Of a DNA stretch of 64,000 nucleotides, positions 15,887 to 29,690 are shown piece by piece. Under the pieces are notes generated by a model. That model was not told the origin of the DNA, did no database searches, and was given only the letters and a program-made list of their open reading frames with translations. Source of the DNA: Octopus vulgaris (taxonomy: Eukaryota); NCBI GenBank assembly GCA_951406725.2, contig OX597824.1:2232001-2296000 (forward strand), written 5' to 3'. Both the position numbers and the translations under genes were made by a program. Position 1 is the stretch's first letter. Every line of letters starts with the position of its first letter.

Positions 15887-17010
15887 TTCAGTAAAAGTTA
15901 GATTCAGTTACTTAAGGGAAAGGCAACAGAATGGAGTAAGAGAGCAGAGTATGGCAGAAGCCACAGCAACTCAAAATAAAACTGGTGGAACGTCCCCGTG
16001 AAAACCTCCGTATAATATAAACACAATGGACCTAACATAATGATTTCGGACAGAGAAGAATAAATCTGTACAGTTGCACAACTCAGTTGCCCAGTTGATG
16101 TTAACATAAAACAAAAGGTCAACGAAAAAGAAAATACCTACGATGAACTACTGAATGACTTGCAGTTACTCTATTCAGATTACAAGTTTAAGTTTATACC
16201 TGTAATTATTGAGGCCCTGGTATATGTAATACACTGCCTACATACCAATCTTGAGAAATTAGGCTTCTCGAACCCAGAAAGAAGGAAGCTGATTCGAAGA
16301 CTACAGATTCAATCCATCACTGGAACAGTAAAAATTTGTAAAACATTTCAGAAGTTCATCGTTTATGAGCATGTCTTGATGTGCAAGCATATGCTTGAGA
16401 AGGCATATATAAGTAAATATACAAATCTGCACTTATACATACGTACGTACTTATGTACGTACATACAGACATGCATACATACATATGGAATATGTAACAC
16501 ACTGCCTAAATACCAATCTTGAGAAATTAGGCTTCTCAAAACCAGAAACGAGAAAGATAATTCGAAGACTACAGATCCAAGTCATCGCTGGAACTGTAAA
16601 AATCTGTAAAACTTTCTAGAAGTTTATCATTTAAATATATATGAGCATGTCTAGATATGCAACTATATGCATGAGAATACATACATAAAACATACAAATC
16701 TGCGTATACATACATACATACATACATACATACATACATACATACATACATACATACATACATACATACAAAATACCCTGTTGTTGATGTTGCAATTAAA
16801 ATGAAGAAGTCTTGGATCTAAGTTAGAAACCGGTTCTTTTGCTATTGGCAAGCAAACTTGAAATAAATTGAATAATAACATACGTATATATACACACAAA
16901 CATACATACAAAAGCACCCATTGATGTTGCTGAAATTCCAATAAAGGACCTTGGATTTAGGTTAGAAACCGGCTCTTTCTGTATTGGCAAGAACTCTTGA
17001 AATAAATAAT
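15884..17010 (+). mobile_element. R4/Dong-clade LINE 3' end (restriction-like endonuclease) with duplicated tail
   Basis: WWNVPVKTSV*YKHNGPNIMISDREE*ICTVAQLSCPVDVNIKQKVNEKENTY..FIPVIIEAL (decayed RPD..E..P motif); 16222-16440 is repeated at about 16490-16710 and 16770-16865 at about 16910-17005. Confidence 0.8.
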
Positions 17011-20420: not shown

Positions 20421-21132
20421 GTTAATAGTTTCATAATTTTAAACGCCTTAAATAAAAAAAAAACCCTGAAATATCGTAAATTCTTTAATTCAAATCTATT
20501 AGTCTCTAGTTCTATAACCGAATTTGTTACATAATATACGCATTTATATATAAATGTTTATATATACACACACTCATCCCCATATTTACACATGTATATA
20601 TATATAAACATGCATACGTACATACACACACACACACACATATATAGGCATATTTCCAAACGTGTACTCACAGTCACACACACACACACACACACACAAA
20701 CACATATATGTGTGTGTGTGTGTGTGTGTGTACATATATTTAATTTTTTATAGAACTTCTTATCTTCTTTCTTGGAGCTCTAAAGGAATAGAAATGCTTT
20801 CAGTGATGCCCGACTCTATCCTTTTCCACTATTTTCCCCATCCTAAAAGAGGTTACCATCCTTGAATACTACAAACAGGACCGACTAAAAACAAACTAAA
20901 CATTAAAAATAAATACTGGGGTTGATTTTCCCGGCTAAAATCTCCAAGACGTTTCCCACCATGGATGCAGTCCTATGGCTGAAGCACAAAAAATAAAAGA
21001 TGAATTATTGAATGCTTTTCGGGGGTTTGATTGTATATACACAAGGGAAGAATCTGTTTTAGTTTACATCAGGATACGTAGATACGTATTTACTTAGGAA
21101 AACGCTATCACTAGAAATATTCAATATTATAG

Positions 21133-21166
<34 letters not shown>

Positions 21167-21392
21167 GAAATATTAAAATAACTAAGTCTCTCTAAAAGAG
21201 AACAGCGGCAGCGTTCCCGGAAAATAATAGTTATCGCCATACTAATATGGCATTCTTATAAAAATAAGAATAAAGCTGTCCGCTTATTAGCTCCATGAGG
21301 CCATCGCCTTAAGTTAGCTATTTGATACACAAACTGTATCCATATAACCTTCGAACAAGGGAGGTCAGTCGCTCCACACTACTTGACCGGCA

Positions 21393-21434
21393 GCTACAGA
21401 CGCGTTTCGGGGTATTGCCCCTTTTCAATGCAGC
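21393..21434 (-). ncRNA. type I hammerhead ribozyme, U3-A8 variant
   Basis: exact reverse complement of 21799-21840. Confidence 0.8.
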
Positions 21435-21798
21435 GTAGCCAGCCAGTAGGTGTCGCTTCCGACAATCTCTGTTCGATGGTTTTATTTACCTAGTTTCGGT
21501 GGAATACATCCACTTGTTTTCAATAATAGAAATATTAAAATAACTAAGTCTCTCTAACTTAAGGCGATGGCCTCATGGAGCTAATAAGCGGACAGCTTTT
21601 TTCTTATTTTTATAAGAATGCCATATTAGTATGGCGATAACTATTATTTTCCGGGAACGCTGCCGCTGTTCTCTTTTAGAGAGACTTAGTTATTTTAATA
21701 TTTCTATTATTGAAAACAAGTGGATGTATTCCACCGAAAGTAGGTAAATAAAACCATCGAACAGAGATTGTCGGAAGCGACACCTACTGGCTGGCTAC

Positions 21799-21840
21799 GC
21801 TGCATTGAAAAGGGGCAATACCCCGAAACGCGTCTGTAGC
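21799..21840 (+). ncRNA. type I hammerhead ribozyme, U3-A8 variant
   Basis: GCUGCA-UUGAAAA-GGGG(CAAUA)CCCC-GAAAC-GC-GUC-UGUAGC; predicted cleavage after C21834. Confidence 0.8.
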
Positions 21841-22003
21841 TGCCGGTCAAGTAGTGTGGAGCGACTGACCTCCCTTGTTCGAAGGTTATATGGATACAGT
21901 TTGTGTATCAAATAGCTAACTTAAGGCGATGGCCTCATGGAGCTAATAAGCGGACAGCTTTTTTCTTATTTTTATAAGAATGCCATATTAGTATGGCGAT
22001 AAC

Positions 22004-22089
<86 letters not shown>

Positions 22090-22368
22090 ATATATATATA
22101 ACATTGTGACTTGACTGGAGAATTCTGGAAACGTCTTTTTATAATTTTTTTATGGTATCACTTCTCATGATAATATTCCCAGAGTACGATTCATTCATGT
22201 GCACAAGTCGTTGATATTACTGCAATGAGAAAGATAATTTTACTCAAGCATTCATTTTAGAAAATCTACATAAACAAGTATGCTATCAAGAAGCTATTTC
22301 TCTCCAGCTTGTTTAACCAAATGAAGATTTAAAATAAACATTGATTTTAAATATATTCACGTAAGCAG

Positions 22369-28385: not shown

Positions 28386-29690
28386 GGAATTTATACAAAA
28401 GCAAAAGACGAAGCAGGTGTATGAGTTTGAAGCTCGGAAATATGAAAATGTCTTTTATGTTTTGAGCTTAAGCTCTTCAGCAGAAAGGAATAAGAGAAAA
28501 TAAACAGAGAGAATGAGAGAAAAAAACGTAGATTTAGGGGGTCAGGCATAACGAATGATTAGTAAAAAATAAGTTGAAAGAAAGGGAGATAATAAAGTGC
28601 TGGTGATCCCAAATGAAGGTGCGCTTGCGTGTGTGTATATGTGAGGGTGGTGTGTGTGAATGCATAAGCGTGTTTTTGAATAGGGGCTCGTGACTCTGAC
28701 TCGTGTGAGTGCGTGTGTAACGAGTAGCTGCGCATACACTGGTACGTGTACTGACGTTATTGAACATTGTGTGTGGGTGGTGGGAGGTGGTCAGTGTATG
28801 GAGTGGTGTGGAGTGGTGTGGTTTGGTGTGGTATGGAGGTGTGGGGTAGGTACAATCGAAGAGAGGAAGTAGGTGTCAGATGAAGAGAGGAAGGGAGTTG
28901 AGCCCATGTGACATAAATGAGCGAAGAGAGAAGATTAATTCTGCTCACGGCGAAGGCTGATGTCCAGATGGCCCATGCGCAAAGACTGTCCGAACAGACA
29001 GATATTGTAGTGAATGACTGTAAAGCAGAAAGGGTGGAAGACCAGGGCGTGATGTCGAGATTTTCGAGGGAAGAATTAGAAATAGTGTAGGAGAATTCGA
29101 GAGCAGGATGGAAGGATTGTACAAAAGAGAGGAAAGAATCTAATTGCTTGCAGGAAAGAGAGGTCGCACTGATACAGTCGTTGATATAACGACCGTATAA
29201 TTCGGGAGTGGGATCAGTAAATCGTGAGAATATTTGGGCCTGAGCGTAGCCAACGAATTGGTTTGTACAATTAGGGTCCATTCTCGTTCCCCTGGCCAAT
29301 CCCGAATGTGTTGGTAAAAATAATCCGCGAACGGAGAGTTGAGGGAGAGAACAAGTTCAACCAGACGAAGAAGGGTGGAGGTGACAGGTTGGAGGTTAGC
29401 TCGAAGGCCCAGAATATATTTCAGCGCAAGAAGTCCTTTGTTGTGTGGGATCACCGTATATAAATTCCTGATATCAAAAGTGAAGAGAAGTTAGAGAAGC
29501 CAGGAGGGAAGGAGTCAGAGCCAAAGAGACGGAGAGCATGGTCAGTGTCGTGGATGTGGGATGGGAGGGGCAGTTTCAGGCGGAGACGGTGCGTGGAGTG
29601 CGGACAATGAGGTCGGAGGCGGTGGAAGGGAGATGGGAGGAGGAAATGAGTTCACGCATTGAGGAGGACACAGTCTGTTGGTATTTAAGC
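28381..29690 (-). mobile_element. Penelope-like retroelement (Neptune-type), internally deleted, with 3' terminal repeat
   Basis: LISSSHLPSTASDLIVRTPRT, LFTFDIRNLYTVIPH, ARGTRMDPNCTNQFVGY, YGRYINDCI, FHPALEFSYTISNSSLENLDI (RT motifs), then RREQ-LIFSLRSFMSHGLN (GIY-YIG C-terminus) and an HHR-bearing repeat at 28381-28530. Confidence 0.9.
28452..28487 (-). ncRNA. degenerate minimal hammerhead (family A) in PLE terminal repeat
   Basis: CUUU-CUGCUGA-A-GAGC(UUAA)GCUC-AAAACAUA-AAAG. Confidence 0.5.

Follow-up and report, generated by a model that had tools for sequence, protein, structure and literature searches.

We propose that a locus in the Octopus vulgaris window analysed here (64,000 nucleotides of contig OX597824.1; all positions are those of the window) carries a predicted self-cleaving type I hammerhead within a non-coding 362-nt retrozyme. 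We hold with considerable confidence that this unit has a likely snRNA-type promoter, that its RNA would be cut to unit length and probably circularized, and that its copies were likely inserted into (TA)n by a Penelope-like element (PLE). Transcription by Pol II would start at 21773, and cleavage would occur after the GUC ending at 21834 in a dimer that pairs two ACGCGU palindromes; the unit-length RNA would then be ligated into a circle. A PLE dimer would nick both (TA)n strands and begin one cDNA at each of two positions of the template that are separated by 63 nt; cDNA synthesis round the circle or along a multimer would give up to 7.5 tandem units.

A predicted type I hammerhead at the tip of a rod

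A first-pass annotation of the window described a hammerhead in which the core UUGAAAA replaces CUGANGA, both partners of the C3-G8 pair being changed (U3-A8); this core is present, and each of the other segments named was found in the sequence where it had been placed (Table 1). UUGAAAA and GAAA face each other with U3-A8 as a Watson-Crick 3-8 pair, and are surrounded by helices I to III (6 bp, 4 bp and a 2-bp palindrome), A15.1-U16.1, C17 and an open helix I, as in type I hammerheads. Canonical type I hammerheads of metazoans that act as dimers are described with this geometry: 6 bp in helix I, 4 bp in helix II and a palindromic helix III of 2 bp (PMC4209133). Helix III, 2 bp with a 2-nt loop, is predicted to need a dimer for its stability; the pairing of two short strands with the palindrome gives -8.9 kcal/mol. 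Each arm of the insertion in the window contains a single hammerhead, so that any dimer at this locus must form in trans; with this single hammerhead, and with a change at 21740 that is private to it, the window copy would release no monomer in cis.

An internal loop that follows the 6 bp (UAC/UGC plus U) and the helix II loop (CAAUA, CAAAUA or CAACUA) were kept in all 16 representatives of the family. These two loops may be the counterpart of the loop 1-loop 2 contact of the schistosome hammerhead.

The rod at the base of the hammerhead was also found, shorter than the approximately 50 bp first given: the listed segments add up to 39 pairs, and the minimum free energy structure has 42. The described rod is the predicted fold of the 136-nt stretch (-62.7 kcal/mol, z -6.47; equalled by none of 200 shuffles), the antisense fold is weaker (-53.5 kcal/mol), and the minus-strand copy at 21346-21481 is identical over the entire rod. 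Folding of the whole unit as a 362-nt circle, a check proposed at the outset, gave -118.4 kcal/mol (z -6.1 compared with 100 shuffles).

Rfam returned no hammerhead match in 21165-22005 (841 nt) at E up to 10, and microsatellite noise only over the whole window. The motif is therefore missed by a standard search, as predicted; U3-A8 alone need not explain the miss, since Rfam, at a stricter E of 0.01, also gave no hammerhead for a related repeat with a CUGAUGA core (in L278).

Table 1. Positions of the retrozyme insertion, its predicted elements and an intact LINE copy
Feature	Position	Strand	Remarks
362-nt unit	21648-22009	+	
Whole insertion	21161-22009	both	two head-to-head 5'-truncated arms
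Right arm	21554-22009	+	1.26 units; (TA)n adjoins its 3' end at site A (unit position 362)
Left arm	21161-21557	-	1.1 units; (TA)n adjoins its 3' end at site B (unit position 63)
Tail	21648-21710	+	63 nt between the two fixed 3' ends, the putative reverse-transcription start sites
(TA)n target, left	21124-21163		
(TA)n target, right	22007-22100		
Hammerhead look-alike	21706-21750	+	UUGAAAA, 5-bp hairpin, GAAA, GUA; overlaps the PSE-like element
PSE-like element	21713-21728	+	best match of the unit to the U1/U2-only matrix; minus copy 21505-21520
AT-rich, TATA-like box	21745-21753	+	about 28-20 nt above the predicted start; from sequence
Predicted +1 to +17	21773-21789	+	site of 17 bp that the LINE duplicates elsewhere, without insertion in the window; copy on the minus strand at 21444-21460
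Rod extending helix I	21752-21887	+	39-42 bp; compensatory changes between subfamilies
Type I hammerhead	21799-21840	+	U3-A8 core, palindromic helix III
Helix I strands	21799-21804 / 21835-21840	+	6 bp
Core box UUGAAAA	21805-21811	+	
Helix II strands	21812-21815 / 21821-21824	+	4 bp, CAAUA loop
GAAA box	from 21825	+	
Helix III palindrome ACGCGU	21828-21833	+	
GUC	last base 21834	+	predicted cut after 21834
Second rod and hammerhead copy	rod 21346-21481, hammerhead 21393-21434	-	
Intact LINE copy	L071:691-6043 (G000:C1:162622090-162627442)		

The core variant is fixed in a large family

In the genome searched (2.8 Gb, 227 contigs), the exact 30-mer core had 892 matches (control 0) and cores with another N7 had 503 (control 3), the latter mostly from older subfamilies and not all of the family; counted by exact cores, the family has at least 892 copies, with about 500 older ones. 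Covariation of the 3-8 pair across genomic copies had been put forward as a check and was not found inside the family, where U3-A8 is fixed. None of the 31 matches of a genome search for C3 (control 13) combined C3-G8 with the stem II of the family; six carried this stem, all of them C3/A8 mismatch copies, three from one older subfamily. G8 was absent among the 173 rods parsed out of 178. N7 is variable (A, C, U) and changes while U3 or A8 seldom do, and A8 and GAAACGCGUC were retained in 16/16 representatives. We regard U3-A8 as an isosteric replacement that became fixed when the family was young; the same pair forms the core of the main PLE of this genome (UUGAUAA).

U3-A8 is already published and is not new to this locus. 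It is described as a natural hammerhead covariation that is active in vitro (PMC3088659), and is reported in about 1,300 Schistosoma PLE motifs, the minimal hammerheads of Cercyon PLEs (PMC4209133); literature searches returned nothing for the wording 'C3U/G8A' and only PMC4209133 for 'U3-A8'. At L032, L033, L039, L042, L044, L095 and similar loci there are diverged motifs of the type CUGANGA/UUGANAA ... GAAACGCGUC, whose middle parts contain AAAGA and are similar; they have no match to the 362-nt unit and are perhaps an old hammerhead family.

Conservation of the structure was examined in 16 representatives, hand-picked from 78 distinct sequences and covering subfamilies down to about 82% identity. 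The pairings are retained family-wide: for 48 pairs, 96.5% of 766 cells were paired, compared with 28-44% in slid controls. The stems covary between subfamilies, 5 of the 48 pairs being changed on both sides, and the helix II pair 10.1-11.1 was kept as G-C, G-U and A-U. Since the aligned sequences are related by descent, this covariation amounts to about five events; three of five covariation measures were above all of 500 shuffles and two were not (62/500 and 500/500). These results uphold the initial proposal of a selected RNA structure. A-U/G-U exchanges at two pairs, together with the better fold of the plus strand, point to the plus strand as the RNA.

We consider it rather improbable that the same mobile element carries a vestigial or very weak hammerhead, its rod being kept for RNA stability or enzyme binding and its copies being made from uncleaved multimers. 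Such a situation has precedents, as eight of nine predicted Xenopus retrozyme dimers were not cleaved in vitro and one was (10.64898/2026.07.22.740005), and as the hammerhead of the purified PLE PAc is dispensable in vitro, ribozyme mutants still inserting (PMC11167929); C3/A8 copies and a helix III of just 2 bp and 2 loop nucleotides would also agree with it. However, box 2 and helix III differ at 2 of 170 positions (an inflated conservation, as that motif served to find most of the loci), and divergence is 6% in the hammerhead compared with 12-16% in the rod arms (most loci were found via the core, again inflating its conservation). The freedom of N7 next to the near-constancy of U3 and A8, the lack of G8 in the parsed rods and the succession of pairs at 10.1-11.1 likewise argue against a vestige. 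In conclusion, the hammerhead is real, selected and of a known core variant, and is likely to be active.

A likely snRNA-type promoter in the unit

Several retrozyme loci are interrupted by a LINE that duplicates the 17 bp equal to window 21773-21789 (described below), and this site was compared with the snRNA genes of the same genome. An ATCAGT-type upstream motif was found at 48 of 50 U1/U2 loci, its AGT lying 54-58 nt above +1; LINE ends precede the other two. When both strands of the unit were scanned with a matrix built solely from the U1/U2 upstream sequences of this genome, the top match was 54 nt above the LINE site. A score as high was reached by 1/3,000 shuffles at the fixed position and by 16/1,000 anywhere in the unit; the score itself is 11.5, compared with 14-22 for the training sites. 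In five copies of two other hammerhead repeats, the best match within 100 nt was 55-57 nt above the LINE sites (0-8/3,000 shuffles each). The combination of a PSE-like motif at U1/U2 spacing with the LINE site makes a snRNA-type promoter likely, with a start at 21773 deduced from the LINE site. A 2020 review states that retrozymes seem to lack promoters (PMC7761336), and newt satellite 2 is cited as a hammerhead tandem repeat with an internal copy of a snRNA promoter read by Pol II (PMC2220036).

Since Pol III would terminate at the T5-T6 runs of the unit, the model requires read-through by Pol II. Bases upstream of the predicted start take part in the lower rod, which would thus form only in read-through or circular RNA. 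The U1/U2 motif was not visible by eye in U6 upstream regions; five tandem variant U6 genes with octamer and TATA (L233-L237, G000:C1:139.42 Mb) lack it upstream by eye.

Of the two other repeats, the second hammerhead family (L268, L269, L273, L275, L278, L279) has a C3-G8-type core, CCGAUGA in 4/6, apparently a U4C variant; its PSE-like layout is the same, its core follows the LINE site at a distance of about 32 nt, like that of the 362-nt family, and its ends adjoin microsatellites. The third (L265, L270, L284) has a PSE-like motif, a rod, a decayed hammerhead-like motif and an inserted sister LINE.

A stretch that overlaps the PSE-like element (21706-21750) was initially read as a second hammerhead, and was downgraded after the comparison with U1/U2. 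Two working hammerheads per unit, the second being this minimal U3-A8 look-alike, would be a model to which we give little credence. The look-alike does contain the two boxes, GUA and a 5-bp hairpin without mismatches, no other part of the unit is as conserved (4.4% divergence), and 765 exact matches occur in the genome. A relaxed descriptor, loosened after the motif had been seen, finds the look-alike and the main hammerhead and nothing else in each unit, with no hits in 5,000 shuffles. As a ribozyme, however, it would require three additional bases ahead of helix II and an A bulge beside U3, and its hairpin shares bases with the PSE-like motif. Two related repeat families keep the same palindrome, equally spaced, but not the first catalytic box; this and the overlap with the PSE-like motif mean that a promoter function explains the conservation, and 21706-21750 is probably promoter DNA rather than a second ribozyme.

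Insertions with two fixed ends and the likely role of Penelope-like elements

The unit is non-coding and the arms consist of pure unit sequence, devoid of an ORF with reverse transcriptase (RT) and GIY-YIG; elsewhere in the genome, 362-nt tandem arrays reach 2,731 nt (7.5 units). A non-coding unit in dispersed tandems, with one type I hammerhead per unit and a self-paired predicted circle, fits a non-LTR retrozyme. A literature search for octopus and hammerhead found no description of this family among the papers listed, and the word 'ribozyme' does not occur in the passages of an octopus repeat-annotation paper (PMC13282606); supplementary files and Repbase/Dfam entries may already list the family or the LINE targets. 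Assembled contigs from four runs presumed to be RNA cover parts of the element, strand, ends and level not being readable from contigs. In runs X16-X20, which bear five other organism labels, 0.83-0.90 of the words of the unit were present. The window also contains open frames of 199 aa (28760-29356, minus strand) and 152 aa (16064-16519, plus strand) that look like decayed retroelement pieces; neither had a match in Pfam.

Arms were scored at 72 distinct loci, after removal of 11 overlapping duplicates and one locus without the element: 44 are plain head-to-head insertions, 25 single arms and 3 complex. Of the 121 arm ends, site A (unit 355-4) accounts for 52 and site B (58-66) for 58, and 98 of these 110 adjoin (TA)n. 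All head-to-head pairs in which both ends could be classified use one site each (34/34, binomial P = 6e-11); in 11 further pairs one end is unclassifiable, elsewhere than A or B. The 49 listed 5' ends are scattered over the entire unit.

PLE insertions are described as carrying an inverted truncated copy with a tail on one end only (10.1101/2021.04.23.441226), and the purified PLE PAc as cleaving both strands and starting reverse transcription at two template sites that bound the tail (PMC11167929). The octopus insertions similarly have an inverted 5'-truncated copy, a one-sided tail and a microsatellite target. Given this match of the two fixed ends, the inverted arms and the (TA)n target to the PLE signature, we infer that the retrozyme was likely copied into (TA)n by a PLE RT and endonuclease. 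PLEs have been called a strong candidate for retrozyme copying, the question being described as open (PMC7229834), and the mechanism is asked for again in a report that relates Xenopus retrozymes to PLE pseudo-LTRs (pLTRs; 10.64898/2026.07.22.740005).

A young and abundant PLE is present in the genome (L155-L163, L129-L154). It has an intact 781-aa frame with RT, a CxxC linker and GIY-YIG at the C terminus, and a minimal U3-A8 hammerhead about 75 nt from the end that adjoins (TA)n. This hammerhead reads UUGAUAA in 30/30 motif matches, with a pattern open to both cores and 40 loci scanned, some overlapping. Some PLE copies have a 479-aa upstream frame. The 40 GIY-YIG loci (30 of 150 scored, from 6,136 candidate hits, and 10 wider regions) contained no sequence match to the unit, apart from one neighbouring retrozyme copy (L143).

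It is very unlikely that the unit is itself the pLTR of an autonomous PLE and the copies its 5'-truncated ends. The PLE-type ends, the (TA)n targets and the relationship reported in Xenopus would suit such an origin, but the arms repeat the unit up to 7.5 times, the 5' ends spread across it, the flanks of the first 30 loci (mostly 1.5 kb or less) share almost nothing beyond the unit, and the LINE is the only coding passenger found.

A LINE lineage inserted at the predicted start site

The LINE that interrupts retrozyme loci is 5.35 kb long, has two frames, and is young and intact. ORF1 contains zf-CCHC, and ORF2 (about 1,130 aa) contains Exo_endo_phos, RVT_1 and zf-RVT (Pfam). An ORF2 of the APE-RT type, an upstream ORF1 and a fixed target with duplication correspond to Tx1-type elements, so that domain layout and target indicate a putative L1/Tx1-type LINE; protein searches placed it neither in Tx1 nor in L1, and returned no named Tx1 references. 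Tx1-clade LINEs are known to target other transposons, satellites and U2 (PMC4494074), and, as of 2015, Keno and Utopia are given as the only elements targeting U2, and Dada as targeting U1 and U6 (PMC4640811, PMC8869645).

All 19 exact 3' ends of this LINE in the genome, and two close copies, are followed by the target site (21/21 of the subfamily); these copies occupy 16 chromosomal places in three retrozyme subfamilies. The 17-mer precedes 16/16 full-length 5' ends examined. LINE-site-LINE tandems and differing 5' truncations (L074, L120, L323) represent independent events, and one tandem array (G000:C2:73.04-73.07 Mb) contains five LINE copies. Specificity is not strictly family-wide, as eight further copies (81-97% identity) lie outside the retrozyme: one exactly at +1 of an Rfam U1 gene (L188:2090) with a 17-bp duplication, one at a start resembling that of U1, and six at unrelated sites whose first bases are, as in U1, ATAC or ATAT. 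More distant sisters (about 83-90%) lie at +1 of U2 at two loci (L290, L297); L211 and L212 are listed among sister-LINE insertions at the first base of U1/U2 snRNA genes. Another sister lies in the second hammerhead repeat, which accounts for 6/9 of the 3' junctions of that group, three being elsewhere, and one 3' junction was found in the third, hammerhead-like repeat. In a tree built from one 370-nt stretch, with L189 omitted and most inner nodes weakly supported, the copies that target the retrozyme group together in a single clade (support 0.92) among the U1-like ones. No paper that combines a retrozyme with Tx1 was found, and none in titles and abstract openings describes this start-site-targeting arrangement.

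The 5.35-kb insert was considered as an autonomous partner of the retrozyme and was rejected as its mobiliser when it proved to be an APE-RT LINE. That the LINE mobilises the unit as a SINE-like passenger is extremely improbable: it is young, intact and tied to the repeat, but its insertions give 16-17-bp duplications at one repeat site, the retrozyme arms lack the LINE 3' tail and end at two internal sites in (TA)n, and L120 and L122 show LINE pieces carried in head-to-head arms. These LINE fragments within arms suggest that a LINE-retrozyme read-through RNA was copied by a PLE-type route.

More tentatively, and with somewhat more doubt than belief, we propose a three-tier system in which a hammerhead circle with a snRNA promoter would be copied by a PLE dimer from two start sites and parasitised by a LINE lineage. 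This lineage would find the first base of PSE-driven genes by position, for example via promoter-bound SNAPc, with family specificity coming from the 3' read-through target RNA, here trimmed by the hammerhead. If so, a LINE copy that lands on the first base of a different PSE gene would thereby take on a new target; this would account for the switches between U1, U2 and three retrozyme families, with a LINE divergence of only 3-17%.

Comparison with known systems

The core variant alone is ordinary, and its context matters more. The identical substitution occurs in the minimal hammerheads of Schistosoma Cercyon PLEs (PMC4209133) and in the variants of Perreault et al. (PMC3088659), whereas the octopus motif is of canonical size, at the tip of a long rod and in a non-autonomous unit, and is not a minimal PLE motif. 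With the metazoan non-LTR retrozymes described from mussel (350-390 bp), axolotl and coral (PMC7229834), the octopus element shares a non-coding tandem unit (362 nt here), one type I hammerhead of canonical size with a weak palindromic helix III, a strongly self-paired predicted circle and coexisting PLEs. It differs from them in the fixed U3-A8 core, the head-to-head arms with two fixed ends in (TA)n, the PSE-like element and the dedicated LINE parasite; the circle here is predicted from sequence.

Inverted 5'-truncated copies, partial tandems, a tail on one end, two RT starts and a bias for (TA)n are shared with PLEs (PMC11167929, 10.1101/2021.04.23.441226). In contrast to PLEs, the octopus unit has no ORF, its tail is 63 nt rather than 30-40, and no PLE sequence match was found. 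The 34 of 34 insertions with the two-start-site signature, which has an in vitro precedent, name the exact template sites. Newt satellite 2 (PMC2220036) is similarly a hammerhead tandem repeat with a snRNA-type promoter; the octopus promoter is a prediction, and its PSE-like element would supply the source of transcription that retrozymes are said to lack (PMC7761336).

Tx1L, Keno and Tx1-Mar (PMC4494074, PMC4640811) resemble the octopus LINE in combining APE with RT, in a fixed target that lies within a repeat or a snRNA gene, and in tandem insertions separated by the duplicated site, but the octopus target is a hammerhead retrozyme. The flank of Keno and Utopia begins at U2 nucleotide 39 (PMC4640811, PMC8869645), whereas the octopus sister LINEs use +1 of U1 and U2, and, unlike those of Tx1L, Keno and Tx1-Mar, the octopus targets are alike in their distance from the PSE-like motif more than in sequence. 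The radiation of the LINE points to promoter position as the basis of targeting, possibly programmable, and to fast switching of targets, which our literature search did not find in print. Compared with these systems, what the octopus family adds is a two-site PLE signature, a predicted promoter and a LINE that targets the putative start site.
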